Positions 15,521 through 49,817 of a DNA stretch of 64,000 nucleotides are shown in pieces. Origin of the DNA: Naegleria gruberi (taxonomy: Eukaryota); assembly GCA_000004985.1 (NCBI GenBank), contig GG738921.1; one strand, written 5' to 3'. The translations under genes and the position numbers were made by a program. Under the pieces are notes generated by a model. It ran no database searches, had not been told where the DNA came from, and saw nothing but the letters and a program-made list of their open reading frames with translations. The stretch's first letter is position 1. The number at the start of each line of letters is the position of its first letter.

Positions 15521-15522
15521 TT

Positions 15523-18293: not shown

Positions 18294-21200
18294 TCATTCC
18301 TCTTCTGCTTCTTCTCTATTGTATCCAAATGGATGACAAGTTTTTCTACTCATTAAGGCAAGACAACAATTTACAACATATTCAAAGTAAGGCTTTCCAT
18401 CTACATGGATTAGTTTGGGTTGATAGTAGGCTCTTTGTACTGCATTCCTTCCTGAACTTGCAAGTGAATGAAATGTATTTTTGAAAACAAAGAATGATTC
18501 TGTGTGGAAATCAGAATTTGCAAATATTGCTTTAACTTTGATTGATTCCAATTCGTTTTCTTTGTCATTGTAATCAAATGAACATAGATATAGGTATAAT
18601 GATGAGTTTTCTCTAAAATCCTTAACCTCTGTTAATTATCGCGTAGAGAAATACAGTGTTTGTAACTAATTTCATAAAACTACTTACTATTGGCAACACC
18701 CAAGTGATTGAAACAAGCTGAAAACTTGGCTCCAAATGCTGTGAACTTATCTGAATAACAACATCTATCAATATTATCAGGACTAACACGAAATGTCAAA
18801 GTATGGATGGATAATGGAAACTCTGTTGCCCATCTATGAACAATAGGAGGATAATTAGTTGAGGATGATTCCTTTCTTCCAACATGGAACATTTCAATAT
18901 TATTGAAAGGTTTGAATGGTTCTTCCTCAACTTTCTTCATCCCAACCACAAATTTAAACTTGAGAAAATCATCGTCATCTGTTGAGTAAGCGGCAATATG
19001 GGTCTTATCAAGAAATATTCCATAAGATGCTTTAGGCATAATGAATTTTCTACTGTGAACAAGATAGGATTGAGGTTCTAGATCAAAATTACAAATAAAA
19101 AAGTCGAGTCTTATTCTATCAAATACCTGTTGCTTATTCTCTACTGGAATTGTGGAATTTAGTGTTAAAAATACTGTAGAATTGCCCAAACATTCATCTT
19201 CATCATCTGTTTCCGATTAGACAATTAGAAAATTAATAAAACGTAACATACCTGGCAGAAGCTCCACAACCCACTCGTGTCCAAACTGTATGAAAGGTTC
19301 AGAATAATAGCTAGTATTAAAAGGGCCAGTTTTTGGTACCTTAACATCTGCAATATGAATGGTATAATCTTTTTTCTGTGGTGGAATATTTTCCTGCACA
19401 AATTGGAAAAGGTCTTCTCCTATAGGTTTCAATATTGGCTTAATTTTTGTTTCTGTGAACTCTGTATCTATTTTTGCTTTCTTTTCTGCAATAAGTTCTA
19501 AGGTTTTCTTAGAAGATTTGAAAAATTCATTGGACATAACTAGGTTGATAAAGTCCAAAATGCTATCATTTTGTGGGAAATGATCCACTACTGCAATAAC
19601 AGTATTAATAATAACATGTCCAGAAAAATTACAAATTTCTTGTTTCCCATCAATAAACTGATGTAAAACTCTACTGATCATCTTTTGTGTGCAATTTTGA
19701 ATATTATCATATATCAAACATTGTATGATACACTCAAAACAATTGAAAAAACTGGTGAACCTCCCTAAATCCATTAAAATATTAGCAACAACACAAAATT
19801 CAGTTTGAGATAATATTTTAGGTATTAACTTTTCCAGATCGTGAATATTATTTTCCTCAAATATAATTTTTCCTTCTTTCCATAGTACATCCAAAAGATC
19901 AAATATTCCATAAAAGTCCACACTAGTTTCATCTTGAAAAGCAGTCAGAAAAAGTTTACAAATTTCGGCTTTCGAAATGTCTAAAAAAACATAGCTGGAT
20001 AGTTGTTCAATAGCTAAACATGCATCTTTCATTTCTCTTAAATATATTCTTTCTCTTACATAGGAAAGACATTGATCAATATCATTATAATCAATTGTTG
20101 GGTAAATCCGTTTTGTGCTTAGTGGTTCTTCTTTCATTATAACGGTAACCCTGTTAACTTCTTGTTCAAAAAGAGAATAATCTGCGCTCAATACTCTAGA
20201 GTCAAAGCATTCCAACAGTAAAACTCTACAATTGGTGAATTGTCTGAAATATTGTGTCGATTCTTGTGTAAGGCCGTCATTGTACTCTATTTTTAGGATA
20301 TCCAACTCATCAGATAGGGGAATAATATCCTTAATAAATTCATCTTGAATCTTACACCTTGAAAACACTAATTCTTTTAAAATTTTTGTAGAGAGTAGCC
20401 AGTCTTTGAATCCAATTTCTGCTCCAGTAATCTCTCCGACAAAAGAAAGATTAGTAATGTTACTTGGAAAAGTGCACTCTTGTAAGTTAGTAACTTGCTC
20501 ACCAAAGCATACTTTCAATGTTGTCAAATTCTTGAATTCTCCAAGATATTTTAGATATTCAACATTCTCGTTGGTTACCCTTACATTAAGAACCTTTAGA
20601 GAACTCCTAGGTAAATGAGGAATAACTGAAGCTTCAATGGCCTCACCTAAAACTTCTTCCAGTTTGCAATTTACTATTGCTTGGATATTTTGATGAATAA
20701 TTTTATCTTCGAACTGTTCACCTTGCAGATCCAATATTTTTAAATCTTCACAGTCATGGAGAAATGAATGGTTCCTCCTCAATATCAATATAAGTATCAG
20801 TATGGTACAGCAGTTTTTCCAAATGTTGTCCTATTAAAGCCTTAACAACATTAAAACAAATTATTTCGTTAGTACCTCCATAAATTTTAAGAATTCTGAG
20901 TTGTAAACAACTTTTCAATTGTTCCAAAATATCTTCTTTTACAATTGTAAATTGAAAATTTCTAGGAAAGTCTAATGTTAATTTAGACAACTTAGAGAGA
21001 TTACAGAGACAACCTAGCAATGTATCTAACTCATATGAGGGATCATATTCATTAGTGAAAACAACATTCAATCTTTCTAATGTTCTTGAAAGGATGCTCA
21101 AATTCTTTTGGAGATTCAATATTGTTTCATCAGAAGTTGATTTCCATACCACCTTGAGCTTTTTCAAATGGGAGAATGAATTAGATGAAAATACTGAAAA

Positions 21201-22020
21201 GTATGAACCAGTTATATTTGATAGTGTGTCTCGAGCAAAGAGGGAAAATTTTTCAATCTTTTGTGAAACATTGGAAAGTACTAATGACATAATAGAATCA
21301 TCAAAATAACTAGGGTTGATAACCAAAACTGTTAAATTTGGACATTGTTGTGTGATATCCTCAATATTCTTGCGTGTTAGTGGATAGCTAGAACGAAACT
21401 CTGTCAAAGATTGAGGAAACCCAATCACGGTTTGATCCATTTCTTCTTCATGGAGGTTTAGTTCAGATAAAAGGCTTATCAACTCGAGAGTTTTTAAATT
21501 TTTAAACTCTTTCAACAAGTGAAAATATTCAGTTTTAAGATTAGTAAGTGTCAATACTGTCAAAGATTCCAACAATGGACTTGCATTCATTATCCACTCA
21601 ACAATGAAACTTCCAGAAATACAAGTTGCAGCTCTCAACCTCAACTCTTCCATTGACAATCGTCCAAGCTCACACAAACCCACATCTAAAAAAGCATATA
21701 TTAATCGACCATTCATAAATAATAATAATAAATTGATAACAATTACCTGTTAATGACGAGAACTCCAAAGAATTGAATGTAAACAAATCAATAACCTTCA
21801 ATCGTTTCATCTTGATCAGTAAATTATCCACAACTCCTCCGATCCTATGATTACTCAATCCGATGTGAATAAAGTATTGGGTCTTGTTATTCAGGAAATA
21901 ATACCAGATCCACTCGGCAAAAGTCTTTGAAATAAATCTCATCTGCAACAAGTGGTATTCATTGAAAAAACATAGCAAGTGTTCGGCACACAAATCACAA
22001 GGTAAATTCTGAATTTTCAT
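18294..22020 (-). CDS. Very large F-box-like / leucine-rich-repeat protein; exons 21747..22020, 19252..21685 (internal frame break near 20754-20788), 18689..19206, 18294..18629
   Basis: N-terminus NLPCDLCAEHLLCFF..FISKTFAEWI is F-box-like. Long LRR-like region with internal duplication (KTEYFHLLKEFKNLKTLEL versus NVEYLKYLGEFKNLTTLKV). Introns 21686..21746 (61 nt), 19207..19251 (45 nt, GTATGT..AACAG) and 18630..18688 (59 nt, GTAAGT..AACAG) verified by frame continuity. Track ORFs 20754..21716 and 19217..20788 overlap by 35 nt in different frames. Confidence 0.55.
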
Positions 22021-22380
22021 TTTTTTTTGATTTGATAGGAAATCTTTGTTAAACTGGAATGAAATTGTAATATCTAAATAATTTAAATATTAAATTATTT
22101 AATATTTAAATATTCAATTTTACATGATACAATTGAGGGGTCCGATCTATTCTTAAATTCATCCTCACAATATTCCTCGCACGAGCATAGAGCTCTTATT
22201 ATCGGGTTTCCAATTTCCTCTCACAACCCTTTCAATTCACCTCTCCATGGAATTTCAATTATTCAACCTTGATCATCACATGGCAACAACCTCTTAATGC
22301 GACAACGAGAAAAAACACGAATAATTTTATTACTCCATCCTCTTCAAAGAAAGGGCGGGTTTTTTTCTTAACGTAAAAAA

Positions 22381-22560
22381 ATACCTCGCAGCGTGCTAAG
22401 CGTTGGAATGTTTCGCACTAAGCAGAGTGCGCAAAGAGAGCACCATCAGCAGATTCCTTAGAGAAGAAGAAGGATGATACTGCTGATGGAAGGCTTTGCT
22501 CTCTATTCTTCTTCTAAAAGGTGGTGAAGGAGGACAATGTGTTGTGAGGATTATTTGTTT
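22381..22560. ncRNA. Candidate structured RNA or regulatory element: local GC-rich island with a long imperfect hairpin and possible pseudoknot
   Basis: A 17-bp stem: GAGAGCACCATCAGCAG (22436-22452) pairs with CTGCTGATGG...TGCTCTC (22480-22489 and 22497-22503), with a 7-nt bulge. Apical-loop AGAAGAAGAA can pair with TTCTTCTTCT at 22506-22516. A second small hairpin CGCACTAAGCAGAGTGCG at 22412-22429. GGATGATA and CTGA box-like motifs. Confidence 0.25.
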
Positions 22561-22703
22561 TTGAATGAATAGTTGAAATTGTACGTCGCTGATTCTCCAA
22601 AACACAATCAGAAAAAACAACAATACAAGAAACTATTAGGTTTCAATATATATTCCGAGTTTTATTGAATATTTGAATCATTAATTGATAATTACTTTGA
22701 AAA

Positions 22704-24776
22704 ATGTCAACAAATAATGAATTGGTTGTTGACGTCCAACAAATTAAGGATGATATGAAACAACAACAGCAACAACAGCCAGAGAGGAAATCAAGAAATC
22801 CCTTCAAGAAAAACAAGAAAAAGGCTGAAAACAAAGAAACAGAAGATATTGTCGATACAAGAGAACCAAATCTCAAATTTAAAGACAGTTTCACAATTTA
22901 CAAAATCATTGGATGGAATTGGATTTTGATATTCTTGGGAAGTATTGGTGCTATGGGAACAGGTGTTATTCCAATTAGGTAAGTTTCAGATATTTGAGTT
23001 TTTGTTACAAACACTTTCAAAGTTTCCAATTTGTTATGGGAGATTTAATCAATGTCTTTTCACCAACACGTGCCGATGGATCCACTGTTACTGCAGCTGA
23101 ACAGAAAGCTGAAATTGGAACATATGCTTCATACTTTGCAATTATTGCAGCTGCAGCTTGTATTGCCAATTTCATGTCTCAATTCTTTTTGAATTGGGCA
23201 AGTGAAAGAATTGGTGTTGCTATTAGAAGTGCTTATTTTGACTCATTGACAGTTCAAGAGATGGGTTTCTTTGATATTAAGAAGGTTGGTGCATTGACCA
23301 TTACTCTTTCTGAAGATATTACTCGTATTCAGGAAGTTTACTCTGTCAAGTTGGCTACCTTACTTCAAAACTTGGCTCAGTTCGTTGTCGGTGTCATTCT
23401 TGCCTTAACATCAGGATGGCAAATGGCCCTCGTCATGATGAGTACAACACCATTAATGATTTTGGGTGTAGTGTTGTTGGGTGGTGTTATCAGAAAGTTG
23501 ACCTTGTCAATTAATAAGGCCAACGATCATAGTGCCTCCATTGCTACTGAAGTGATGGGAGCTATGAGAACTGTAAGATCAATGGCCGGAGAGGAAAAGG
23601 AAAGAGTCAGATACAAGAAGGACTTGACCAAGATGTATTTGGCTGGTATTGGTAAGGCTGTTGCTCAAGGTTCTACTTTTGGTGTTTTGGTTGGTATCTT
23701 GTGGGGTACTACTGCTTTAGGTAAGTTTTTTTATTATTTCAAATTAGCTCAATAATGTTATTTTAGCTTTCTGGTATGGTGGTGGTCTAGTTGTTGATGG
23801 AACCATGAATATTGGATCTATGCTCAAGGTTTTCGGTTTGACATTGTTTGCTATTATTGGTATTTCTCAAGCTGGTTCATTCTTCCCTGATTATGGTAAG
23901 GCCATGGTTTCTCAAAAGACTGTTTTGAAATTATTGAAGAGACAACCAGCTATTATTTTCAAGGGAGGTAAAACTCTTGATACTATCATTGGTAATGTCA
24001 CATTTGAAAATGTTGATTTTGTCTATCCATCACGTCCAAATGCTACTGTCTTGAAGAATTTCAGTTTGGATATTAAGGCAGGTCAAGCTGTTGCTTTGGT
24101 TGGTCCATCTGGTTCAGGTAAATCAACAATTGTTGGTTTATTGGAAAGATTCTACGACCCAGCTCAGGGTAAGGTTTATCTTGATGGTGTTGATATCGCT
24201 GAAATCGATCCAATGTGGCTCCACAAGAATATTGGTATTGTCACTCAAGAACCTGTATTGTTTGCAACCAGCATTTACAAGAATATTGCTTATGCTATTG
24301 GTGAAGAAAATACTACAATGGAAAAGGTTATTGAAGCCGCTAAATCTGCCAACTGTCACAATTTCATTATGGACTTACCAGATGGATACAATACTTTATT
24401 GGGTGAACGTGGTGTCTCACTCTCAGGTGGTCAAAAGCAACGTGTCTGTATTGCTCGTGCCTTATTGCAAAATCCAAAACTTCTCTTATTGGATGAAGCT
24501 ACATCTGCCTTGGATACTGAATCTGAATCTCTCGTTCAAGCTGCTTTGGATTTATTGATGAAGGGTCGTACAACTATTTGTATTGCTCACAGATTGTCAA
24601 CTGTTAAGAACTCTGACAAGATTTGTGTATTGGCTAAGGGTATTTTGAAAGAAACTGGTACTCATGCCGAATTAATGGCCATTGAAAATGGTATCTATAA
24701 GAATTTGGCTGAAAGACAAATGTTGTTCTCTAATGAAAATGCTGATGTTGAAGCAACAATGGAAGTTTTGCAATAA
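22704..24776 (+). CDS. ABCB-type half transporter (TMD plus NBD); exons 22704..22978, 23023..23720, 23767..24776
   Basis: Six-TM N-terminal half. NBD has Walker A GPSGSGKST, signature LSGGQKQR, Walker B LLLDEATSALD and H-loop IAHRL. Introns 22979..23022 (44 nt, AG|GTAAGT..CAAAG) and 23721..23766 (46 nt, GTAAGT..TTTTAG) join the three track ORFs in frame. Confidence 0.85.
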
Positions 24777-24985
24777 TGTAAATATGTAATTTTGGAGAGT
24801 GTAAATAAATTCAATTTCAAAAATTCTTTAGTAATAACAGAGATGGGAAAGGAGAATCATTAATCAACCAATATTCCAGGATAGAGATGTGGCCTTATTC
24901 TACCCATTGAATTCTACAATGGGAAGTGAACAATTTGTAAAAGATTTGATTTAAAACAAGCTTTACAATTTTGATAAAAAACTCT

Positions 24986-27469: not shown

Positions 27470-27832
27470 TTTGATCAGGTTTTTATAATAATGTTATCTG
27501 TACAATTTTGTTGTTGTTTAGATCAGCAGCCTATCAAGAGAAACCTCCGAAAATATGTGTGTGGTAATAATTTGGAAGATGATCAAATGATATCTTTTTT
27601 TTTTAATTTTCTCTTTGGATGAACTCACCTGGTAAGAGTTCACTCTTCAAAATTGTGTTGACCCAAGGTTCACCACCTGTTAATAATTATTAAATACTTT
27701 ACAAAAAAAATAAAATATTTAATTTAATAATAATAACAATCAATATCAGAATGAATTTTTTTGCATATTATGATTTGACTTCATGCTGGGAATGTACATT
27801 AGATAATTGTGTTCATCTCCTTCAATTAAAAA

Positions 27833-30883: not shown

Positions 30884-30987
30884 ATGAAACAATTAAAAAG
30901 AAACTGAAAAGTAAATCTTCCTTCAACTCTCAATTCCTGAACGATTTTTCGGCCGTTATTTAAAAACATTTTAAAAATTTAAAAAAA

Positions 30988-32315: not shown

Positions 32316-32494
32316 ATTTGATTATCAATCAAATAATCAATGAAAACTAACAATACGGAAGGAAATATTCAATTTTAACAAGATTAAGAAGATTGAATAG
32401 AGAAGTGACAATAGAAAAGAGTAAATAATTTTACCCTGCCATCAAACCAAACATTAACACGAAGCCAAAATTGATTGTTGTAAAACAAAAAAAA

Positions 32495-33694
32495 ATGTCA
32501 AAACGAGATCGGTCATCTCGCGAGCAAGAGGATGAACAAGAAGGAACTTTGTCTTCGGAAGAAGAAATTTTTGATGATACACCAACATTGATGAAAAATG
32601 ATTTTTCAATGGAAAGGAAGAAGAAAAAAGTAAAACAAGCACCACCCTTTAATCTTGTCAAAATTACGCAAGATTACGATCAATCACATTATAAATGTGT
32701 TCAACTAGGAAATGATTATGATTCATATATGTTATTTTCGGCCAACAAAACGCCAACCAAAGAGATTAAAGAAGTGATATTCATGATGGAAACATTTCTA
32801 CTTATTAGAACAGTTGAAAATAGAATATTTTACATGGATGAAATGATTGCACATGGAGAGGTGGATTGCAGCAAGATCATTGATAAGAGTTCAATTTTGA
32901 AACTTGTGGCAACCTCTTCATCTGCCTATTTACTAACAAAGAGCGGAATTTATGTGTATGCTCGTGGTACTCATTCATTTGAACCTTCCTTTTCAATTGA
33001 AAATCATGATGAGGAGTTTGTTGATATTTCAGCATCTTTTGTTGATAACTTACTGATTCTAACAAGTGAGAATAGAATTTTAACAACTGGTTGGAATAAG
33101 TTTGGAATGTTGGGAGATGGCACAACCAAAAGCAAATATCACTCATTAGTTAATCCTGAAACAAGTCATACTCATCGTGTAAAGATTATAGTGAGTGGAT
33201 CATGCTTTAGTCTTTACACAAGTGGCAGCTCTTTATTTGCATGTGGAGAATTGTATAATATTGGAAGTTCTGCATGTGTCTCCAAGTTTGAAAGACAATC
33301 TCATTTCAAATTCGAAGCGTCAGATGTGGAACAGATCATTGCCAAACCTTTATTTACCTGTTTTTGGACGAAACAACATGATTTACATATTTACGGAAGG
33401 GGATTTTATACCAAACTCAATCTTAATCAAAATATTTACTCAATAGCTGTGCTTTACACCAACATATTCTGCTCATATAAGAATGGAAATGAAATAACAC
33501 AAACAAGACATGAACATGTTTCAAATGGAGAGTTTACAACAGAGGTTGTGACTGGAAAGTATAATGTCAAGTGGTTCAATTCTGTTTGTGTTGGTTCCAA
33601 CTCAATGTTGCTGTTTTTCACAAAACCACAGGAGGAGTCAATATTTAAAAAAGTAATTACCAATTTTTTTGACATCATAGTCGATTCTTCATGA
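32495..33694 (+). CDS. RCC1-like repeat (beta-propeller) protein
   Basis: ATG in A-rich context at 32495; TGWNKFGMLGDGTT and further degenerate RCC1 repeats. Confidence 0.55.
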   Translation: MSKRDRSSREQEDEQEGTLSSEEEIFDDTPTLMKNDFSMERKKKKVKQAPPFNLVKITQDYDQSHYKCVQLGNDYDSYMLFSANKTPTKEIKEVIFMMETFLLIRTVENRIFYMDEMIAHGEVDCSKIIDKSSILKLVATSSSAYLLTKSGIYVYARGTHSFEPSFSIENHDEEFVDISASFVDNLLILTSENRILTTGWNKFGMLGDGTTKSKYHSLVNPETSHTHRVKIIVSGSCFSLYTSGSSLFACGELYNIGSSACVSKFERQSHFKFEASDVEQIIAKPLFTCFWTKQHDLHIYGRGFYTKLNLNQNIYSIAVLYTNIFCSYKNGNEITQTRHEHVSNGEFTTEVVTGKYNVKWFNSVCVGSNSMLLFFTKPQEESIFKKVITNFFDIIVDSS

Positions 33695-37880: not shown

Positions 37881-38988
37881 ATGTCTGCTCAATCCATTAG
37901 CTTTTCCAAGTATACAAAATTCGACAATCACTACAGAAAACAATACGTCGAATCGATCAAGACCCAAAATGAAGAGATGAGCAAGAAATTAAATCATCCA
38001 ATGGAATGGTATTGCTCCGAGAAGGTTCATGGTTGTAATTTGAGCTTTATTGTTGATAGAGTAAGGCAATCAGAGTATAAAGTAGAGGTTGCTAATCGTT
38101 CATGTGTTCTTTCACAATCATCAATGAGCTTTTATCCAAAAACAATTGAACAGTTGGAGAAAAAGTTTGAGTGGTGAATTGAATGAACAATTGAAATTGA
38201 AGAGTGTTCAAATTTATGGTGAATTATTTGGTGGATTATTCCCAAATAAGAAACCTTCAGATGCTAAGGCAATTCAAAGTGGAATTCACTATTGTCCACA
38301 TCATGATTTTTATGCTTTTGATGTTCTTCTCGGATTTGAGAATGGAAAACAATCTTGGGCTGTTTTTAACAATGTTGATCCATTGTTGGATGAGTGTGGA
38401 TTCAAAGTGAGAGCTCAACCATTGTTTAAGGGAACTTTGGACGAATGTTTGGAGTTTGATGTTAAATTTAACACTAAATTACCAGAAACTTTCTATCCAG
38501 AAATTGTAAAGGAAAGAAATGCTTCCTGGAAGGATTTGGATAATATTTGTGAAGGTGTTGTCATCAAACCAACCAAGTACAATATCTTTGTGGAAACTGA
38601 AAGAGCTGTAATCAAGAAGAAGAATGAAAAATTCTTGGAAACTGAAGCTAGTGATAAACCACAACAACCAGTGAAAAAGGAAAAGGGTGACTCTGAAGAG
38701 CTAGTTCAGGTATGGAATGAACTCTCACGATACATTACCTCCAATCGTTTGGATAATGTTCTCTCAAAGATTGGAAACCTCACCAAGAGTAACATGTTCC
38801 CAGTTATGAAGGAATTCTCAAATGATGCCCTCGAAGAATTTAAATTAGATTTGGAACGTGGTGCTTTGGAAAATTGTAAACCAGTTTCTTCACTTTCAAG
38901 TGAAGATCAGAAAAAGCTCACTAAAAAGATCAATGATGCTTGTATGGTTTTAATTAAGGAACAATTAAACAAACCATCATCAGAATAA
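37881..38988 (+). CDS. Rnl2-family ATP-dependent RNA ligase homolog (nucleotidyltransferase motif I KVHG); single-base frame break near 38145-38160
   Basis: EKVHGCNLSF matches the T4 Rnl2 motif I (EKIHGTN). ORFs 37881..38177 and 38146..38988 overlap in different frames at the homopolymer gagaaaaag; removing one A yields continuous ...EKSLSGELNEQLK.... Confidence 0.55.
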
Positions 38989-39098
38989 AGTGCAAGTTGA
39001 CTATTTCGAATAAAAGTGGTGTTACTGAAATAATTTACAATTTTTTGTTTTTTGAATACAAATTGCAATTTATTGATTATTTACCATACAATAACCAT

Positions 39099-39386
39099 TC
39101 AATAATTACGGTGTTTACCCTCATAGGTATGATAAACCTCTACTCTGTCTTGTTGTGGTACAGTATCGCTTCTTTTTTGATGGTCTGGAAAGTTTTGTAG
39201 GTGTTGTCTTAAATTGCCATGAATGTTACCAGTGGCAGCACACTTATGTCCTTGTGGGGTTTGACTACTAATGGGGTTATTTTGAGATTTAATTTGACTA
39301 CTTGTTTGGGAGTTATTTTGAGATTTAATTTGGCTACTTGTTTGGGAGTTATTTTGGCGACCAGTTTGGGATTTATGTTGAGTCAT
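39099..39386 (-). CDS. Small hypothetical protein with tandem QTSSQIKSQNNS repeats
   Basis: 95-aa ORF; underlying about 39-nt DNA unit directly repeated twice at 39275..39352. Confidence 0.3.
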   Translation of the reverse strand: MTQHKSQTGRQNNSQTSSQIKSQNNSQTSSQIKSQNNPISSQTPQGHKCAATGNIHGNLRQHLQNFPDHQKRSDTVPQQDRVEVYHTYEGKHRNY

Positions 39387-39624
39387 TTTGTTTCTGGCTT
39401 GTTTTATTTATTTTAACATACCACGTTTAACATCAAAACTTTTATTATAAAGAACTTTTGAGCCAAAAGGGAGACTTCATTTTTGGACAATTTCTTAATT
39501 TATGAAATTACTAGCTCAAGAGAAGCCCAAGACGAGTCAAGGATTTATTTGGTGTTGGTGAGCCTTTAAATTGAACCAATGACAATAAGGATATTGTTAA
39601 GAAATTTTAAAAAATCAGAAAAAA

Positions 39625-41562
39625 ATGCTCAACACTGAAACCAAGCTAACCTTCCATCATGCAATTTTCGAATTATCGGAAGGCTACTTTTTCATTGATC
39701 AAATTCTTCCATTCTTTTCTTTCAATGATTTGGAAAATTTATTTCTCACCTCCAAACATATTGCCGAGTTGGTGAGCAGACAACATCACATTGATTATTT
39801 AGCTGTTTTTAATGCTGGACTTGCACATTATTCATCATCGGGGAATCGGAATAGATGGATTGATTCAACTCCTCCGAATGAATTTCCATCACTGCTGCAA
39901 TTTGCAAATGGAATAAAAGTGATGATTGAAGCAGAGGGATCATGGCTGATTGAATATATTATTGGTTATTGTCGGAAGGTGAATAAGTTATTCAGTATTT
40001 CATATGATAAATATATTTATAATTGGTCACAAATGGATTTATCACTGATTAAGAATATTGAGGAGTTTGGACTTGTCAGGTTGGACATGTATAATTTTCC
40101 AAAATTTATGCCATTGTTTGAGGGAAAGAAAGTGAAACAGATTAAATTATCTATGGGATATATTTATCAAGATATCTTTGAACAGACTAGACCTGTTTTA
40201 GATAAGATCAATTTCAAGGAATTATATTATTCCATTTCATGGGTTTCTTCATTTAATATACTGAGTGAAGGTCTATCTAAGGAAGATTTAGATTTTAGAA
40301 ACAAGATAAAGATTTCAGTAGGTGATGTCGGGATAGATCAACACCATTATAGTTCGCTGAAAAACATTTCTAAATGTTTCGAGTTTAGTTCAATTACAAT
40401 TGAGAATGCTACAAAAAAAGAGGAGGATTATAGCGACCACAAATTTGACCTATTTTCAAAATCATACACCTTGAAAGCAGCTTTTTTAACCAAAGTACAG
40501 TCACTTGCATTGCCTAAATTCTCAAATACTGAGCCTTCAGCAATAGAAATGCATAATATTGAATTAGCTCTCAATAGTGCAAACATTGATACTTTTCATG
40601 TGCTACACACGACGAAATATTTAACAGAATTGAAATTGCAGGACTGTCACATTGATTTTTCAGATATTGATGCAATTGACTTGAAATTATTGAATAATAT
40701 GGTTTTGAATAGATGTAAATTTGTAAAGAATGGAAAACAATCAAATTTGGAATTTATTGAATGTATTAGTGCACCTAAACTCACAAATCTAACATGTGGT
40801 GACCTGTCGTTAAAATCAATTCCAATGATTTCAAAGAGTATCACCACTTTAAAATTAGGCAAGAATGAAATTGAAAATATCGAATTGGAAAGGTTAGATT
40901 CTATGAAAGGATTGACTAGTTTGGATTTATCAAATAACAAGTTAAATGATTTAAAAAACGTTCAGTCGATTATTGGAAAATTCAAGGACCTGAAATTGAA
41001 TGGAAATCCAATCTTTAAACGTATGATGATTAACAAAAACAAACTAGAATTTATTAACGATGACTGTAAACATGATGTTAAAAGATCGAGTAAGCTAAAC
41101 ACAAAACCAAAATTTTCTGGAACAGATGTGGAAATTATCAAACAATTCAGAATCATTATCTCTCAGAGAGATTATCCACACTGTGTTGAAAGGAAGGATT
41201 TTCTTAAACTAATTTCAAATCCAAAAAAACCAAACAGCTTGGACGAAACAAATGTGATTTTCTGGAACCATCACTACAGCAACAGTCAAACATCATTGTC
41301 AAAAGATGGAAATACCACATTTGTTGGAACTAATTTTACAAGCTTTTGTCAAGTTGCCATCTATCTAAACAATTATTTACAACACGAGTTTTGCTCTAAA
41401 TGGTATTTTTTCGGTATTAATGGAACAGATAATATTGAGCCACTGCATAATAGAGAATTGCTAAATGAGGTGTCCTATATTGTGCATGAATGGTCCTTTG
41501 TTTCCTCTCACATTGAATTTGTTAGAGAATTGAGAAGAAAATATCCTTCGAATTCTTTCTAA
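39625..41562 (+). CDS. F-box-like / leucine-rich-repeat protein (645 aa)
   Basis: N-terminal ILPFFSFNDLENLFLTSKHIAELV (F-box-like); C-terminal LRRs (LTSLDLSNNKLNDLKNV.. LKLNGNPI). Confidence 0.6.
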   Translation: MLNTETKLTFHHAIFELSEGYFFIDQILPFFSFNDLENLFLTSKHIAELVSRQHHIDYLAVFNAGLAHYSSSGNRNRWIDSTPPNEFPSLLQFANGIKVMIEAEGSWLIEYIIGYCRKVNKLFSISYDKYIYNWSQMDLSLIKNIEEFGLVRLDMYNFPKFMPLFEGKKVKQIKLSMGYIYQDIFEQTRPVLDKINFKELYYSISWVSSFNILSEGLSKEDLDFRNKIKISVGDVGIDQHHYSSLKNISKCFEFSSITIENATKKEEDYSDHKFDLFSKSYTLKAAFLTKVQSLALPKFSNTEPSAIEMHNIELALNSANIDTFHVLHTTKYLTELKLQDCHIDFSDIDAIDLKLLNNMVLNRCKFVKNGKQSNLEFIECISAPKLTNLTCGDLSLKSIPMISKSITTLKLGKNEIENIELERLDSMKGLTSLDLSNNKLNDLKNVQSIIGKFKDLKLNGNPIFKRMMINKNKLEFINDDCKHDVKRSSKLNTKPKFSGTDVEIIKQFRIIISQRDYPHCVERKDFLKLISNPKKPNSLDETNVIFWNHHYSNSQTSLSKDGNTTFVGTNFTSFCQVAIYLNNYLQHEFCSKWYFFGINGTDNIEPLHNRELLNEVSYIVHEWSFVSSHIEFVRELRRKYPSNSF

Positions 41563-41601
41563 TAAATTGGATTCTAATATTTTTCAGTTATTTCGAATAA
41601 A

Positions 41602-42484
41602 TTAAACTTTATTATCAGCTCCGTAAGGTTGATTTGGTTGGGCATAATAATTAGGTTGTGGATCCACAACTCCTGGTTGACCATATCCTTGATTAGCAGT
41701 AGGATATGGTTGACCATAACCACCTTGTGGTTGTCCATAGCTTTGATTAGGATTATAAGGTTGAGCTGTTTGATTTGGATTATACGGTTGACCATAACCT
41801 GGTTGACCATAAACCTCTGATGATGGATTGTAATAAGGTTGTTGTTGACCTACTACTGGTGGTTGTGTTTGATTTGAATAATAAGGAGTTGAAGTGTAAC
41901 CACCTGGTTGTTGAACTGCCAAATTTGGTTGCATTTGGCCAACTGTTGTCGTGGTTGATTGAACAGTTGTGGTTGCAACTGGGATTGGAGTGGTGACAGT
42001 TGTGGCAGCTGCCAAATCACTTCTTGACATACCATCTGCGATATTCTTCATGATAATGAACATTCGAATACCTGCAATGACGGACGAAATTCCAGCAATG
42101 ATCAATACAATGCCAATAACACCCAAAACAATTGGAGTGGTAATTCCAGAGCATGATGTGCTGGAATTGGTTGTCACAGCAAGACATGCTATAATGAATA
42201 CAAAGTTTAGTCAAGTTTCGAATAATTTCAAAAATTGATTATTAGAAACAAGATAATGAATTAGTTTTCAACAGATCAACAAGAAACCTACCTGCATACA
42301 ATGCACCAACGGCAATCGCAGCAATTCCTAGAGCAATACCAATCAAGATGGAAACAACTCCTGAGATAATTGTGGCAAGTGGTTTAGTTCTTCTGTTTCC
42401 AATAACTATTCCTCCTCCTACGTGATGATTTACATGATGATGGTGATGATGACCGTGTCGTCCATGGTGATGGTGGTGAGCCAT
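41602..42484 (-). CDS. Two-TM protein with His-rich N-terminus and Gly/Gln/Pro/Tyr-rich (YGQP-repeat) C-terminus; exons 42292..42484 and 41602..42188
   Basis: MAHHHHHGRHGHHHHHH...; two TM helices, one per exon. Intron 42189..42291 (103 nt, GTAGGT..TTATAG) joins ORFs 42242..42484 and 41602..42177 in frame. Confidence 0.55.
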
Positions 42485-42719
42485 GCGTTGTGTTTCGTTT
42501 CGTTTTTTTTGTTGGAATGTTTATTGGAAACTGGGTGATGTACTTGCCAGGTATGGGTTGAAAGGGAGTTCCAATGTTGTTTCTATTTGATGAGGATCTT
42601 ATTGTAATCATTGATTTGTAATTTCCTCATACTGATCCAGTGTGGATATTCGAAAGTTCAATACTAACTTGGAAAATTAACATAAATTTATAATTTTCTT
42701 AAATATTCCAATTTCATTT

Positions 42720-44267
42720 TCATCTAATGTTTTCCAATTTTAGTGTTTCTTCTTGTACATAAATGTCTTTCGTTTGCAATTTAGAAAAGGTAGGATTAGT
42801 TTTCAGTGCTTGTAAACATTCGCTTGTTACTTTCATTTTTCCTTTTCTGTTTCCTTCAAGTTTTGTTAAATTTATCAAATTGGTGCAATTTGATAAAATG
42901 GTTGCATCTATAGATGTTTCTTCAATATTTGTAAAACGTAATTCCTTTAAATTAGACAAGATTGGATTGGTGCAAATTATTTGCAATTCCTTGTTTCCAC
43001 CATCGATACTCAAATATTCCAAATTTGATAGACAAGTAGAATTCAAATAATTTGAAAGGACATTTTGTGATTCCTTGGTAGGTCTAAGACGTAGTTGTTT
43101 GAGCTCTGGACAATGATCAATAAGTGAGGGAAATGGTGCCAAGTTGGAGTCATCCAATTTTAGGTTGGTAATTGAACTTTGACTGTTGGGAGGAAATTTA
43201 GCAATTGTATTATCAAATACCATATTTCGATAAGATTGTACATTCGCATTTACCCATTTGACTGTTGTTAGATTTGGTAAGTTTGGAGAAATAAGCAAAT
43301 TTGCAAAATCCTGATTGTTAATGGAACATTCAGTAATCTTGAGATATGTAAGATTCTTACAATTTCCATTTGATAAAGAAATATCAGTAATTTGGTAGTT
43401 TCCAATGTCCAAATATTCCAAGTTGGGCTTATTTTTCAATACTTCATTCTGAAATTCGTTACCTCTGTAACCGTATGTATGAGATGTTAAATGAGTAATT
43501 TGTTTCAAATATTTGGTACCCAAGCATGACCCAATTCCATCAAAATTATATGATACATCTAACTTCTTAACGGTTGACATAAACGCACTTCCAAATAATG
43601 CATCTGCTTCCGTTTTTTTAAACTTTTGCAGTTGCCTTAAGCTCAGTTCAGTTAAGTTTGGCATTTGACATTTCGTTAAATGCTTTACGGATGATAGAAT
43701 CAAATTATTACCAGAAATATCTAATGTGTGCAATTTATCCCATCTGATACCTTTTCTTGAAAGTGATTGAAATGAGCTAACAAGAGCACCAGACAATTTC
43801 AAAGAAGTGACATTCTTAATTTGTGGACTTTTTACCAAAAACTCAACATTCTTGGAAGCATTCACTTGTATTTCAACCCTGTCCACAACATCTTTCCACA
43901 ATTTTGAAACATATCTACAATAAGCGAGATCATTAACATTCAAGAATTGGAAAATACTAAATAAATTGTCAGAATTCAAACGAGTGGACGAAACTTTTTT
44001 TCTATGAATATCCACTTGTTTTAAAAACTCGTAAATATTTCCAACAAATTCATCAATTATTTCGCTATTGTACACAAAATAACGACTATCAACAAGTTTC
44101 ACCTTATTTGCCAATGAAATTAATTGTGAATTAACAGTCGTCATTTCTTCAAATAACACCGATTCAATATTTTCATCATCAAACATTTTTCCATCATGAC
44201 CATCGTGATGATCAGCAGCCGAAGGCTGTGATGATTCGTGCTTTCTCTTCTTTGTGTTGTTGGTCAT
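42720..44267 (-). CDS. F-box / leucine-rich-repeat protein (515 aa)
   Basis: Canonical F-box NLFSIFQFLNVNDLAYCRYVSKLWKDVV followed by LRRs (LDISGNNL.., LEYLDIGNYQITDISL..). Confidence 0.65.
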   Translation of the reverse strand: MTNNTKKRKHESSQPSAADHHDGHDGKMFDDENIESVLFEEMTTVNSQLISLANKVKLVDSRYFVYNSEIIDEFVGNIYEFLKQVDIHRKKVSSTRLNSDNLFSIFQFLNVNDLAYCRYVSKLWKDVVDRVEIQVNASKNVEFLVKSPQIKNVTSLKLSGALVSSFQSLSRKGIRWDKLHTLDISGNNLILSSVKHLTKCQMPNLTELSLRQLQKFKKTEADALFGSAFMSTVKKLDVSYNFDGIGSCLGTKYLKQITHLTSHTYGYRGNEFQNEVLKNKPNLEYLDIGNYQITDISLSNGNCKNLTYLKITECSINNQDFANLLISPNLPNLTTVKWVNANVQSYRNMVFDNTIAKFPPNSQSSITNLKLDDSNLAPFPSLIDHCPELKQLRLRPTKESQNVLSNYLNSTCLSNLEYLSIDGGNKELQIICTNPILSNLKELRFTNIEETSIDATILSNCTNLINLTKLEGNRKGKMKVTSECLQALKTNPTFSKLQTKDIYVQEETLKLENIR

Positions 44268-44373
44268 TTTTTTTTTTAAGTTTTTAATTAATAAAATTTT
44301 AAATATATTGCTTAATATTATTTAAATTGTGTAAATTAGTGAAATATTGAATGTTCAGTTTAGTAATTTGTAT

Positions 44374-45513
44374 TTAGTTGTATTGATGTTTTGCAGGTGA
44401 TGCCATTCGAATAGGAGCATCTGGATTCAATTGATAATCTGTTTGTAAGAGTGGATACAGTGTAATTGTCTTTCTGGTACACATTGAAATAATTGGGAAA
44501 TACATGACAGATTGTGAGACTAAATCCTGAGTTCCAGTAATTGCTGATGCAATGTGAATTCCATTCTTGAAAAAGTTGACCTGTTTGGCATCGTAATCTA
44601 TAATGACAGCAAATCGATCACCAACAGAGATCTTTCCAACAAATTCAGAACCTACAGTTCCATCAATAAAGTCGCCAAACATTTTGAATGATTTGTTTTC
44701 GAGAATGTAACCAACTCCAGAGTTTCTTTCAACGAATTGAGCTATGGATTTGTCATTATTGAAATCTTCATAATCAGTTCCAATACCAAATGCTATTGTT
44801 AATTGATGGAGGTCAATGTGTCAATATTTCAAATATAGTAAATTTCCAATATACTTACCAACATTCCATGCATTGCCACACAAGAAATATTCTTCAATAA
44901 CCATCTCATATCCTTTAAATCCAAAGTAAAATTGAGGAGATAGTTCTGATAAATCCTTAATCATTGGATATTTGGATGCTTTAAATGCATACCAAGTTGT
45001 AACGTTAATATTTCCAACAGTTCTCTCTCTATTAATGACCTTTTGTTCCTCAACATCAGATGCCTTGTCAAAACACAACTTTTTCATTTGCATCAACACT
45101 GAACTATACTTGATTGCATTTCCCTCTCTCAAAAAGAGCATTTCCCTCAAATATCGATCCAATTCCTTCTCATTCATTGAATTGACCAACGAAACATCCA
45201 AACCACTACTAATAATCTTTGAATTCACTTCATCAATAAATCCATTCATCATACCCAACAATCTATGTTTCCAAATAGTATTTCTATACGCAGCAACATC
45301 ATCCTCTTCATCATCACGATAATTGGAAGAATTCAAACAACCTCCCAAAACCAAATGATAATAAAATCGATTCAAACAAGCAACATTCATCAATGTATTC
45401 TCACAACAATACCACAGAACATTTACTTGATTATCGAGTGGGAGTTCCTGGAATGGAATTTTGTATAACCATTCACCATCAGCAATTTCCAATGTTGTTG
45501 TTGTTGTTGACAT
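44374..45513 (-). CDS. F-box / SPRY-domain protein (FBXO45/Fsn-1-like architecture); exons 44859..45513 and 44374..44792
   Basis: N-terminal F-box-like LYKIPFQELPLDNQVNVLWYCCENTLMNVACLNRFYYHLV. C-terminal SPRY core ..VGDRFAVIIDYDAKQVNFFKNGIHI... Intron 44793..44858 (66 nt, GTAAGT..AATAG) joins the two track ORFs in frame. Confidence 0.65.
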
Positions 45514-46366
45514 TTTTGTATTTACAATTATTAAATAGTATTATTATGAGTATTAAATATTAAATTATATATTAAATTATATTTAAATAAATTATAGGAT
45601 GATGATGATCGGAATTAATGTATTACAGTATTAACTATTATTATTAATATTCAATATAATATAATACAAAATATGTACAAGAGCCTTTTTTAGCTATATT
45701 GTTGTTGTTGTCTTTTTTCAATAATTATGATATGAAAAATTAAAGATCATGTGATGATGGATAATAAATTGTGTTTCGTTATCTCTTTCGGATGACGATG
45801 ATTCAAAGTCTTGAAATTAATGATGATGAATTAATGAAATTGTAAAGTTATTGAAAAAAACGTTTTTTTCAATTTTTTTTTTGATTTTGGGATAAAAATA
45901 GAATTTTTGAATCGTTTTTAAATTTGAAGTGAGTTTCAAATAGTTGAAGGTGAAGTTGAGAAGATAGGAATCGAATAGTGGAATTAGAGAATTGTTGTTG
46001 ATCATCAGCACAAATGGAAGAGATTAAATAGTATATATGGAAAATTGGATAATTAAGAAACATTGGATTACTGACAACCATTGAAAAGATGAGGAAACAT
46101 TAGTTTACAATGGATTTTTTATTCGAATCCAAAGCTCAATAATCGAGAAATGATTATCCAGTGACTTTTATGAAACTTGATGAAAAAGGACTTTCGTTCG
46201 CTCGAGTTTCAGTAATTTTTATACATTCCATTAAATATTCGCTAAATTACATTCATTTAATATTCAATTTATTGTAAAGTGTTTGTATAATTCAATGAAC
46301 CTTGAAATCAAGTCAAGGAACTTGGAACCTGCATGAAAGAATGAAAAAAAACAAACTTTAAAAAAA

Positions 46367-47677
46367 ATGCTTTCTTCCAATCATCAACAAGTTCTCTTCC
46401 TCTCCAACCAATCCTCCTCGATGGAAATTGACGGAGTTTTTGAAAAATGTAATCTTGTCTCTCTCCATCAATTAACAAATTTGGAAATTAAGAAAATTTG
46501 TCCCTCCTCGAGAAATTCATTTATTTGGACAAGTGAGGAAGATCGAATTTTCAAAGTGGGTCGCTCGAATGTTCCAATAGAATCTGAAATTCAATACTGG
46601 AAGAATCCACTCAATTGTTTCGAATGGAAATGGAAAGAAAGAGTGAATAGATATTTGAGAATGAATAAGGAAATGGCATCTATTGTGGATGGTAGAGTTT
46701 TAAATTTGAAGAATATTTATGCATCGTGGTATGCTGTCTTTTTAGAGTTGGATGATGGAGTTTTCTTTGCTGTCAATGATCAAGATGAAAGAATGTGGAA
46801 ATTGGAAAAGGAAATTAAAATGTTTGTAACCTCGCCATGTAGTAATCATGCTTTGGTGGTATTGGAAGATGATGAGCTCATTAATATTGACAGTTTATTC
46901 TTTCAGATGCCTTCTTCTGAAACAGATCAAATTGATGGAACAATTGTAAAGGCAGCAACATCTGCCAAGTCAGATATCATTTTCACAGATAAGAATAAGA
47001 TGTTTTGTAGAGGGGATAATCGATTCAATGTTCAAAATGGTACTAGATCTAATGGATTTTATTCCTATGTGAGAACTCCTTTCGAAAATGAAAGTCTAGT
47101 TCAACAAGTCAAATGTGGACTTTTTCACACAGCTGTCATGTTGGAAAATAAGAGTATTTATGTGTGTGGACAAAACAAATTCAATCAATGTGGAGTTTCC
47201 TCAAAGGAAGATCAATCCTTTACAAAAATTCAATTCTCTTCAGATATAATTCCAGAGAGTTTGTATTGTGGAAGTGATTCGACTGGTTTCACCACCAAAT
47301 TCTCAACCTCCCTGTATGTGTTTGGTGGCATGTTGAAGAATTTAGATTTGAATGCAGTGGAACATGTCCAACAGATGCAAATTACTCAAAAGAAGGGAAA
47401 TAATCAACAACAACCAACAGAATCAGTTTCGTTTGAACAAGTTTCAAGATTTGAACCTTTCGAATTGATTTCAGGAGTGAAGGGTATTAAACTATCACTC
47501 AAATCCATTCCAAATGCTGATTTCAATTCGGTAGTGTTTGGAGATTCGTACATGTTGGTCTTTAAGAGAAATGAGCTAATTGGAAAAACATTGAATTATA
47601 TTCATTTGAATATGAAACGTCTTGGCTTGCAAATTGATAAGCACTATTCAGATCTTGTCTTTCACACTGAATGTTAA
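46367..47677 (+). CDS. Degenerate RCC1-like repeat protein (436 aa)
   Basis: Single ORF; VCGQNKFNQCG and related repeats. Confidence 0.45.
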   Translation: MLSSNHQQVLFLSNQSSSMEIDGVFEKCNLVSLHQLTNLEIKKICPSSRNSFIWTSEEDRIFKVGRSNVPIESEIQYWKNPLNCFEWKWKERVNRYLRMNKEMASIVDGRVLNLKNIYASWYAVFLELDDGVFFAVNDQDERMWKLEKEIKMFVTSPCSNHALVVLEDDELINIDSLFFQMPSSETDQIDGTIVKAATSAKSDIIFTDKNKMFCRGDNRFNVQNGTRSNGFYSYVRTPFENESLVQQVKCGLFHTAVMLENKSIYVCGQNKFNQCGVSSKEDQSFTKIQFSSDIIPESLYCGSDSTGFTTKFSTSLYVFGGMLKNLDLNAVEHVQQMQITQKKGNNQQQPTESVSFEQVSRFEPFELISGVKGIKLSLKSIPNADFNSVVFGDSYMLVFKRNELIGKTLNYIHLNMKRLGLQIDKHYSDLVFHTEC

Positions 47678-47788
47678 TATATACTGTACAAAATTTATAT
47701 ATTTTATGTAAATAATTGATCAAATATAAAATCTTCTATAAATGGAAGAAATAAATAATTATTGAAATATTGCAATTGTGTAGTGTCA

Positions 47789-48543
47789 TTAATACAATTT
47801 ACATTCTGATAGAGTGGCATTGTATGATCCACATCTTGGAATTAAATTTTCATCCCATCCCATGCAACTGTTTGGAATATACAAACAAGATTGTGCAGGA
47901 ATACATCTCTCTGGCGAAAGTGTGTACAAATTACTTGCCTTTCCAACAATTGTTCTTCCATTAACAACTGTAGTTCCATAAAAACATTGTTGTCCAGGAT
48001 AACCAGTTCCAAAAACATAAAACAAAGCAACAGCACAACCAAAAACAAAGAGAATTGGAGTTAAAATCATCAAAATACGTAATTTAGGTTCCAGATAGGA
48101 TGTTCTTTGCCAATAAATCAAAATTCCAAGAGGAACCAATTGAATTATCAAGTAAACCATCATGGCCAAATTACCCCATAATTTCAAATCCGATTCTCTG
48201 TATGTAAATACACCCAACAAGATGAATGTTACCAAACCAATTAATATAACAATTGCTGATGAAGTATATGTAGCTATTTTAATCTATCCATATATATATA
48301 CATATAATAATTATGATCACATCATCATTATCATCCACATATAATAATAACAATAATAACAATAATATCAAACAAATATATCAAACATTAATAGCAATCA
48401 TCCGATCAATATTTAAATTATCATCATCATCAATAATAATATTAATAATACAACAATAATAAATGTAAATATGATCCAATCTATATAACAAAATAATAAC
48501 ATACAGCCTTGCTATTCTCATCACCATAAAGTGGATTCTCCAT
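47789..48543 (-). CDS. Small multi-TM protein with Cys-rich C-terminal segment; exons 48505..48543 and 47789..48283
   Basis: Exon 1 MENPLYGDENSKA (ATG at 48543, A-rich context). Intron 48284..48504 (221 nt, very AT-rich, GTATGT..GGATAG). Exon 2 is in frame with ORF 47789..48235 and has three hydrophobic helices. Confidence 0.45.
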
Positions 48544-48773
48544 TTTTTTATATTTGTTTTTGGTTTCTTCGAATCTTTACAACTCCTCTCGGAGTTTGCA
48601 AAAAAGGCACCGGGTCTTTGAATTGGAATTAATTTGGACTCTAGAATTGAGTGTTATTTGAATATAAAACAATGATTCATGTTCATTTGTGTTGTATTAG
48701 TTGAAGCTTGTATTAAAGATGGTTTAAGGTATTTAAAGTTTACAAAAATATTTTTTGAGTTTACAAAAAAAAA

Positions 48774-49817
48774 ATGTATCAAGATGCATGGGTGGAGGTG
48801 ATGCAATTTTTAGAGCCGATTGATGTGTTGGCGTCTCTACTCACTCTCAATAGAAATTTGTATGAATGGATTAGAAAATCTTCGTGTTTAACCTTTGATG
48901 ATATTTGTAATTATTGTGCTGGAGATGAAAATTCATCCCGAGGCTTGAAAATTTCATTTCATCATCAAATTGATGATCATGATAATTCAATGATTGATAA
49001 TGTAATTGATGATTATTATGTAAAATTGGTTGGAAATACTAAATATATTATTCGGTTGTACTTGGCAAAATTGGCCAAACGATTGGGAAATCAAAATCCT
49101 GTGGAGAGATCTGAGAAAGAAATTTCAAAAATTCTGAATTCATACGAATTGAAATTATTGAATTTTTATAGATCTGTGTTTTTTCCTCAATTTAAATATC
49201 AGGAGAGTGGAACGATTAATTATTTTGTTTTGGGAGATACAGGAATAGGAAAGACAACTTTCAGATATTTTATATGTTATGGAAAGAAAAAAGATAGTTA
49301 TTATGGAGCTACTGGAATTGATTTTCTTATCAAACGGTTTCAAATTGCTGATGAGATGAAATGTGAACATAAGATTTTTGACACTGCTGGTCAAGAAAGG
49401 TTCTTTGCTCCAAACATGATGGTGAAAAGACATGCAAGAAACGATAGGATGGGATTTCTTCTTTGTTTTTCAATGGTTCATCTAGTGTCGTTTGAGAAAT
49501 TGGATGAATGGTTTTCTGCTGTTAAGGAACATGCCCATCCAGAAATTTCAAATTATGGATTAATTGTTGGATTACATCCCCAGAATATTCGTTGGGTCGA
49601 AACTCCTAGCGAACCTCAGATCTGTGTTAAAGATACTGTAAAGAAATCGTATGCTCTTGGTAAATCAGTGTTTTTTGAAGCGAATTGCAATGAGTCCAAA
49701 CAAGTATTTGCTCCTTTTTGGTTTATTCAATTACAATGCACTTATTTCAATAATTGTAAAGAGAAAGACAAGGATCTAACACAAGTTAATAATTCTTGGA
49801 ACTGCTCAATATATTAA
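48774..49817 (+). CDS. F-box-like N-terminus fused to a Rab/Ras-like small GTPase domain with degenerate G4/G5 motifs
   Basis: WVEVMQFLEPIDVLASLLTLNRNLYEWI (F-box-like). GDTGIGKTT (P-loop) and DTAGQERF (G3). The expected NKxD is replaced by GLHPQN. Confidence 0.55.
   Translation: MYQDAWVEVMQFLEPIDVLASLLTLNRNLYEWIRKSSCLTFDDICNYCAGDENSSRGLKISFHHQIDDHDNSMIDNVIDDYYVKLVGNTKYIIRLYLAKLAKRLGNQNPVERSEKEISKILNSYELKLLNFYRSVFFPQFKYQESGTINYFVLGDTGIGKTTFRYFICYGKKKDSYYGATGIDFLIKRFQIADEMKCEHKIFDTAGQERFFAPNMMVKRHARNDRMGFLLCFSMVHLVSFEKLDEWFSAVKEHAHPEISNYGLIVGLHPQNIRWVETPSEPQICVKDTVKKSYALGKSVFFEANCNESKQVFAPFWFIQLQCTYFNNCKEKDKDLTQVNNSWNCSIY

Follow-up and report, generated by a model that had tools for sequence, protein, structure and literature searches.

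Why do several genes with a putative F-box lie close together on one Naegleria chromosome? We address this question for a stretch of 64,000 nucleotides from Naegleria gruberi (contig GG738921.1 of assembly GCA_000004985.1; hereafter the window), which the exact look-up of five open reading frame (ORF) products places on a nuclear scaffold of N. gruberi NEG-M that is 207,235 bp long. An earlier note on the window described five genes within about 31 kb that start with an F-box-like helix bundle. It proposed a locus specialised in adaptors of SCF (Skp1-Cul1-Rbx1) ubiquitin ligases, possibly arisen by local duplication and domain shuffling. We call the genes g1 (18294..22020, minus strand), g2 (39625..41562, plus strand), g3 (42720..44267, minus strand), g4 (44374..45513, minus strand) and g5 (48774..49817, plus strand); ORF reading, splicing and exact look-up show that these earlier coordinates are correct for all five. 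The reading we favour, with a probability of about 0.7, is that this is an ordinary N. gruberi chromosome, on which four, possibly five, evolutionarily unrelated F-box genes are grouped through the abundance of their family.

The five genes share an outline. In each of them an N-terminal candidate segment precedes a further module: leucine-rich repeats (LRRs) in g3 and g2, LRRs plus two MATH domains in g1, a SPRY domain in g4 and a Ras-type GTPase domain in g5. Single-sequence Pfam scans of the N-termini (E≤10) find an F-box in g3 and, weakly, in g5 only; g1, g2 and g4 give no match. The Pfam cut-offs are 20.5 bits for F-box (PF00646) and 24.3 bits for F-box-like (PF12937). Measured against the former, g3 lies above the cut-off and g5 reaches 15.7 bits. 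When a home-made F-box hidden Markov model (HMM) is run over 532 six-frame segments of the window, g3 alone stands out.

At the family level, N-terminal profiles were aligned with an F-box reference (hhalign), and significance was judged from 120 column shuffles per family. The reference consists of 18 sequences (12 entered by hand, two from PDB alignments and four from the table of Herman et al. 2021); its sole validation is that g3, the positive control by Pfam, matches it strongly (93% probability, z=14.9). Compared with PDB sequences, the family N-terminus profiles give no significant F-box match. Taken together, the claim that five genes start with an F-box-like segment is firm for g3, stands at the family level for g1, g4 and g5, and is unconfirmed for g2. 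Four of the five genes can reasonably be read from their sequences as substrate receptors of the SCF type, one firmly and three on family-level evidence.

The firm case is g3. Its product of 515 residues is identical to XP_002669931.1 (exact look-up), and its F-box spans residues 96-133 (43869..43982, minus strand; Pfam PF00646 29.7 bits, E 5.6e-7). A leader of about 95 residues precedes the F-box, such that the protein does not literally begin with it. The best PDB matches of the segment are the F-boxes of FBXW8 and FBXL5. The repeats of g3 match LRR_4 with 29.3 bits, above the Pfam cut-off.

For g4 the evidence comes from its orthologs. The spliced product has 357 residues and is identical to NAEGRDRAFT_82008 (P0015); removing an intron of 66 nt (44858..44793, minus strand) reproduces the deposited protein. 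We place the F-box at residues 21-55 (45349..45453, minus strand) on the strength of ortholog Pfam scores, UniRef names and hhalign. N. lovaniensis and N. fowleri each have an ortholog that is 46% identical to g4; the two match F-box-like with 23.2 and 24.0 bits, respectively (cut-off 24.3 bits; E 3-6e-5), and are named F-box proteins in UniRef. As a family, g4 aligns with the F-box reference at 81-92% probability. Among PDB sequences the family profile comes closest to the F-box of Legionella AnkB, without significance (E 0.83). The SPRY/B30.2 domain (44443..44931, minus strand) spans the intron; Pfam SPRY scores 15-17 bits in g4 and P0016, below the cut-off, and the UniRef name is B30.2/SPRY. 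We found the family in three Naegleria species only and found no N. gruberi paralog: g4 is a conserved single-copy ortholog.

The largest of the five genes, g1, runs from an ATG at 22020 to a TGA at 18296..18294 on the minus strand. According to sequence reading and splicing, it contains three GT-AG introns (21746..21686, 19251..19207 and 18687..18629). Its F-box-like segment, residues 5-42 (21895..22008, minus strand), is identified through the family. A profile of g1, P0018, P0022 and P0023, to which P0024 was later added, aligns with the F-box reference at 85-89% probability (score 28, z=9.3), and none of the 120 shuffles does as well. In the place of the g1 segment, the relatives P0022 and P0018 score 17.0 and 13.1 bits with Pfam F-box.

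The earlier label of g1 as a giant LRR protein captured an LRR-like region but overlooked two predicted MATH (TRAF-like) domains at the C-terminus. These domains are arranged in tandem at about residues 865-993 and 1034-1167 (18356..19366, minus strand; MATH_2 profile). While g1 itself scores 16-20 bits with MATH_2 (Pfam cut-off 32 bits), P0022 reaches 58.4 bits with two stretches and P0023 26.3 bits; P0018 and the N. fowleri relative P0024 carry the UniRef label 'MATH domain-containing'. The LRR signal of g1 is below threshold, and its relatives match LRR_14 at E 1e-4 to 1e-6, likewise below the cut-off. The layout of g1 is thus an F-box-like segment, an LRR-like region, a long helical region and two MATH domains, and P0018, P0020, P0022, P0023 and P0024 are built alike.

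In the window, the reading frame of g1 is broken. Tblastn of the close homologue P0019 aligns with 21725..20766 and then with 20764..20648, and both P0018 and P0019 are coding across the break ('EEEPFxF(L/F)HDCEDLK'). Hence, the window copy has one extra A, at position 20765 (minus strand). Without this base g1 encodes an uninterrupted product of 1186 residues. A 31-nt intron (20808..20778) was considered as a bridge across the break and rejected, since P0018 and P0019 are coding there and tblastn points to a single extra base. The extra A reflects either a mutation that has recently turned g1 into a pseudogene or a mistake in the draft assembly.

P0019 (XP_002669944.1, NAEGRDRAFT_53933) is encoded elsewhere on the 207-kb scaffold, beyond the window, and is 89-97% identical to the exons of g1 where the two align. 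Its deposited model is chimeric and includes an RGS/START gene. Since the identity is 89-97% rather than 100%, and since the C-terminal RGS/START part is absent from the window, P0019 is a second locus. The pair points to the recent duplication of a segment, one copy of which may be in decay.

The Rab-like gene g5 encodes 347 residues, identical to XP_002669889.1 (exact look-up). An F-box-like segment at residues 4-38 (48783..48887, plus strand; Pfam F-box 15.7 bits, E 0.014) is followed by a Ras domain at residues 151-259 (49224..49550, plus strand; Pfam Ras 60.9 bits) and, by sequence reading, by a CaaX-like CSIY at the C-terminus (49803..49814, plus strand). Beyond generic Rab matches, the search with g5 returned Naegleria relatives only. 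Among these, the paralogs P0006 and P0007 are 36-41% identical to g5 and lie on scaffolds of 350 and 216 kb. The N-terminal extension is conserved in P0006, P0007, XP_002681067.1 and ACER01000495. XP_002681067.1, a member of the g5 subgroup with its sequence given in Table S8 of Herman et al. 2021, scores 22.5 bits with Pfam F-box, above the cut-off and in the same register as g5. The alignment of the g5 family with the F-box reference reaches only 1.6-8% probability (z=4.0). We also tried a full-length hhalign comparison of the g5 family with the F-box-tagged Rab-like proteins of Herman et al., and discarded it: only the GTPase domains aligned, with the N-termini out of register.

Three divergent Rab-like clades are specific to Naegleria and have an N-terminal extension, with an F-box 'in at least some' members (Herman et al. 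2021, PMC8296547). With its Rab-like domain, N-terminal extension and CaaX-type C-terminus, g5 belongs to such a clade; its relatives end in CSLM, CLLQ and CGLM. The same study found that Naegleria GTPases of the Ras superfamily have the F-box as their commonest accessory domain, and it proposed 'GTPase-dependent ubiquitination' for F-box/Rab-like proteins. XP_002669889.1 is among the Rab-like genes of its Table S8, where neither g5 nor the sequences next to it bear an 'F-box' tag. Our putative assignment extends the F-box to this untagged, CaaX-bearing Rab-like subgroup.

The GTPase domains of the subgroup differ in how well their motifs are preserved. In g5 the P-loop (GDTGIGKT) and DTAGQE are retained, and by eye the canonical NKxD is missing. 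In P0006 and P0007 both the P-loop and switch II have degenerated, as seen in VGEAGVGTCY and a gapped DxxG. Some members of the subgroup may be pseudo-GTPases.

This leaves g2, a single ORF of 645 residues. A stretch at residues 17-51 (39673..39777, plus strand) looks F-box-like by eye only; Pfam F-box gives no signal in g2 or in its paralog P0014. The profile of this family of two aligns in register with the F-box reference at 2.5-2.8% probability (z=2.6), and three of the 120 shuffles do as well. Against PDB chains, the profile gives no F-box match. The helical N-terminus is conserved.

The remainder of g2 is an LRR protein by its Pfam LRR_8 match (22.4 bits, below the cut-off). An AlphaFold2 (AF2) model from an alignment of three rows has a mean predicted local distance difference test (pLDDT) score of 50.6; it is confident only at residues ~330-465, and the N-terminus stays below 50. 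Foldseek matches the model to generic LRR solenoids (LRRC8, TLRs and SHOC2), not to FBXLs. The C-terminal ~150 residues are conserved and beta-rich and have no Pfam match. P0014, which lies on a scaffold of 138 kb, has 650 residues and is 47% identical to g2 over 98% of the length; a metagenome scan found no further relatives of g2. The deposited model of g2 (P0013, 517 residues) follows the genomic ORF up to about residue 490, then diverges and stops short of its end. Because P0014 is colinear with g2 to the end, the full ORF of 645 residues is supported.

If the grouping had arisen by local duplication, as the earlier note proposed, the five genes should resemble each other. They do not. In an all-against-all BLASTP of the five proteins, the only pair to match is g2 and g3, weakly and through their LRRs (23% identity; E 3e-4, for a database of five sequences), and g3 and g4 share no similarity by BLASTP. 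When the profiles of the F-box segments are compared with each other, the probability is at most 25% (g1-g3) and mostly below 3%, such that the five segments match a generic F-box profile better than they match one another. At the DNA level, repeats of at least 40 nt, whether direct or inverted, are absent from the interval 17.5-50.5 kb.

For g1, g2, g4 and g5, all closest relatives identified fall outside the window; no search for homologues of g3 was made. For g2 and g5 they are on other scaffolds, and for g4 they are the orthologs in N. fowleri and N. lovaniensis. The closest relative of g1 is P0019 on the same scaffold, with P0018, P0020 and the N. fowleri protein P0024 located elsewhere. 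Hence, the five are not a set of mutual close paralogs, as members of a tandem or local duplicate cluster are, and the proposal of local duplication among them is not supported.

Neither is the co-location kept in related species, in a comparison anchored on g4 alone. The genes flanking the g4 ortholog, in N. fowleri (L001) as in N. lovaniensis (L003), are ATG27, an unknown gene, a C2 gene, a longin/synaptobrevin gene and a phosphodiesterase gene. Fourteen other proteins of the window served as tblastn queries, and in neither species does any of them match within ±10 kb of this ortholog. On the N. fowleri locus, about 6 kb from the g4 ortholog, there is an 834-aa BTB-domain protein (1915..4419), which is of a cullin-adaptor type and unrelated to the genes of the window.

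Within the N. gruberi interval itself, at 18.3-49.8 kb, we count about 17 genes, of which about a dozen are unrelated to F-box genes. Interspersed are an ABC transporter, an unknown protein of 827 residues, a Kelch protein, a DNMT1-RFD protein, a dehydrogenase, two RCC1-like proteins, an Rnl2-type RNA ligase and small membrane proteins. The closest neighbours among the five are g4 and g3, which follow each other head to tail on the same strand. The spacer of 106 nt between the stop of g4 and the start of g3 (44268..44373) was reported correctly by the earlier note. Other adjoining ORFs are spaced by 31-71 nt (8636/8668, 41562/41602, 49817/49889 and 59118/59158). Hence, the distance between g4 and g3 is not special. 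Given the unrelated genes in between and the different neighbourhood of the g4 orthologs, a specialised locus shaped by domain shuffling is not supported.

We favour another origin. The five genes belong to different Naegleria or heterolobosean families and would have become adjacent because F-box genes are very numerous, not because of local duplication or a dedicated locus.

Several observations weigh against this reading. Making up four to five of the roughly 17 genes in 31.5 kb, F-box genes are dense here. To judge this density we estimated how often random placement alone would create such groups, with an assumed F-box complement and a genome of 41 Mb, the size of the N. gruberi genome. 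For 150 F-box genes, 0.04 groups of four and 0.001 groups of five, each within 31.5 kb, are expected per genome; for 300 genes the numbers are 0.5 and 0.03, and for 600 genes they are 7 and 0.8. A complement of 150-300 genes would therefore make a chance grouping rare, whereas with about 600 genes or more several groups of four would arise by chance. The fifth F-box gene, g2, is unconfirmed, and the N-terminus of its AF2 model is too poor to judge an F-box. An AF2 model of the N-terminal 146 residues of g5 (pLDDT 44.9) is equally unusable on this point. Finally, the recent duplicate P0019 means that duplication does act at the scale of the scaffold.

Whether there is an excess over chance depends on the number of F-box genes in the whole genome. 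N. gruberi is among the lineages in which F-box and BTB proteins have diversified (Grau-Bove et al. 2015 supplement, PMC4327156), and our search of the literature gave no count of its F-box genes. Because only one of the four to five genes discussed here passes the cut-off, the true complement at this sensitivity is probably several times a Pfam-based count. For the window as a whole, one of about 38 genes passes the Pfam F-box threshold; among the 30 other ORFs that were scanned, no F-box reaches E≤0.01, and the N-termini inspected by eye show no obvious F-box motif. If the complement is that large, the grouping probably arose by chance.

How do other explanations compare? The grouping could be a locus specialised in SCF adaptors, where local duplication of an F-box gene was followed by domain shuffling that swapped the recognition modules. 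The density of four to five F-box genes among about 17, the head-to-tail arrangement of g4 and g3 at 106 nt, and the segmental duplication nearby that the 89-97% identical copy of g1 on the same scaffold implies are all in line with such a history. Yet it is very unlikely given the missing similarity between the five proteins and between their F-box segments, the missing DNA repeats and the closer relatives that g1, g2, g4 and g5 each have outside the window. Moreover, g4 is older than the split of the three Naegleria species and has another neighbourhood in the other two; unrelated genes are interspersed, and a gap of 106 nt is ordinary here. Alternatively, the genes may have been assembled by selection into a neighbourhood of SCF receptors, a 'ubiquitin-adaptor island' that is, for example, co-regulated and that combines a membrane-anchored, GTPase-gated F-box protein with an F-box/MATH receptor. 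We regard this as highly improbable as well. Nothing in the anatomy of the genes points to a mechanism that creates or maintains a cluster.

The enrichment could also be real and yet a by-product rather than a function, if the region is a fast-evolving compartment that gathers lineage-specific birth-and-death families (F-box, LRR and Rab-like). We consider this unlikely. The frameshift of g1 and its recent duplicate on the same scaffold fit such a compartment, as does the description of the divergent Rab-like clades as evolving by birth and death (Herman et al. 2021, PMC8296547). The searches with g2 and g5 gave N. gruberi paralogs and no N. fowleri or N. lovaniensis orthologs, although the word-index homology searches used could overlook divergent orthologs. 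However, conserved housekeeping genes are interspersed in the window (Vps53, the beta subunit of phenylalanyl-tRNA synthetase (PheRS), the ABC transporter and dehydrogenases), and g4 is conserved as a single copy. It is more doubtful still that there is no cluster to explain because only two or three of the genes are true F-box genes, the N-terminus of g2 and perhaps those of g1 and g5 being helical caps or family-specific extensions. Pfam is silent on single sequences of g1, g2 and g4, the home-made HMM recovers g3 only, g2 falls inside the range of the shuffles, the g5 family aligns poorly with the reference, and no PDB F-box is matched significantly. Set against this, the family-level evidence for g1, g4 and g5 is consistent and in register, UniRef calls the g4 orthologs F-box proteins, and every candidate motif is N-terminal to a binding module, as expected of an F-box.

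If the candidate segments are F-boxes, each gene most likely encodes an SCF receptor, whose F-box would dock onto Skp1 and whose C-terminal module would pick the substrate or regulate the receptor. The putative modules are the LRRs of g3, the LRRs and two MATH domains of g1, the SPRY domain of g4 and, in g5, the Rab-like GTPase with a CaaX membrane anchor. For g2 the module would be the LRRs together with the unassigned domain, if g2 is an F-box protein at all. In this scheme g5 would couple the role of a receptor to a membrane-anchored, nucleotide-regulated switch. Proteins of the g1 type would present MATH domains on a Cul1-based ligase and not in the usual Cul3/BTB context. It is from their domain order that we infer Skp1 binding and a function in ubiquitin ligases for these proteins.

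Each of these architectures can be set beside a known kind of protein. FBXL-type proteins such as human SKP2, FBXL2 and FBXL5 and yeast Grr1 combine an F-box with LRRs. Like these, g3 has a Pfam-significant F-box followed by LRRs, and g2 would resemble them in layout, provided that an F-box forms its N-terminus. The differences are that g3 has no significant full-length similarity to any solved FBXL and has its extension of ~95 residues before the F-box, and that in g2 the F-box is undetectable and the LRR model is nearer to generic solenoids. FBXO45 and other animal F-box-SPRY proteins have an N-terminal F-box and a C-terminal SPRY/B30.2 domain. This two-module layout recurs in g4, which we compare by layout only, as g4 has no detectable relation to solved structures. 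MATH-BTB proteins of the SPOP type are substrate adaptors of Cul3 ligases. They share with the g1 family the MATH domain, a substrate-binding module of cullin-RING ligase adaptors, of which g1 and its relatives have two copies at the C-terminus. The MATH domains of g1 differ in that they follow an F-box-like segment and an LRR/helical region instead of a BTB domain, which suggests Cul1/Skp1 rather than Cul3 as the partner. As for g5, its counterparts are in one of the three Naegleria Rab-like clades, with which it has the conserved N-terminal extension and the CaaX-type C-terminus in common. A more distant likeness is TbFRP of trypanosomes, which combines FYVE, F-box and Ras-like GTPase domains (PMC3593210); it, too, has an F-box upstream of a small GTPase domain and belongs to Discoba.

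The window as a whole is compact: G+C content is about 33%, genes are closely packed and introns are short (GT-AG). Two runs of N mark assembly gaps, at 14327..15520 (1194 bases) and 60934..60983 (50 bases). The former accounts for a block of 13.5% G+C and for spurious long ORFs in several frames of both strands at 13841..15650. Immediately downstream of g5, exact look-up identifies the beta subunit of PheRS (49889..51670, minus strand). Two RCC1-like repeat proteins lie inside the 31-kb interval (32471..33694 and 46367..47677, both plus strand), the second directly upstream of g4 in divergent orientation. Between g2 and g3 there are two small predicted membrane proteins (41602..42177 and 42242..42484, both minus strand); one has a long P/Q/Y/G-rich tail, the other an N-terminal histidine-rich tract (MAHHHHHGRHGHHHHHHVNHH).

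Domains were also identified in some of the other genes. At 38146..38988 (plus strand) RNA_ligase and T4 Rnl2 C-terminal domains (97 and 49 bits) define an Rnl2-type RNA ligase in a free-living heterolobosean. At 9835..11925 (minus strand) a protein kinase is fused to ten DUF4116 repeats (301 bits). The gene adjoining it (8668..9606, minus strand) combines a Swt1-like HEPN domain with a TAP C-terminal (UBA-like) domain.

What does the locus tell us about Naegleria? Earlier publications describe the F-box/Rab-like clades and the N. gruberi expansion of F-box proteins. The idea of a cluster itself is of little importance, since its members are unrelated and belong to a family known to be expanded in Naegleria. 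The gains are in annotation: a heterolobosean family with a predicted F-box-like/LRR/2x MATH architecture, a Naegleria-wide F-box/SPRY gene, a putative F-box in the CaaX-bearing Rab-like subgroup, a corrected full-length model of g2 and the frameshift of g1. Because most F-boxes of protists fall under Pfam thresholds, counts of SCF adaptors in protist genomes are underestimates.

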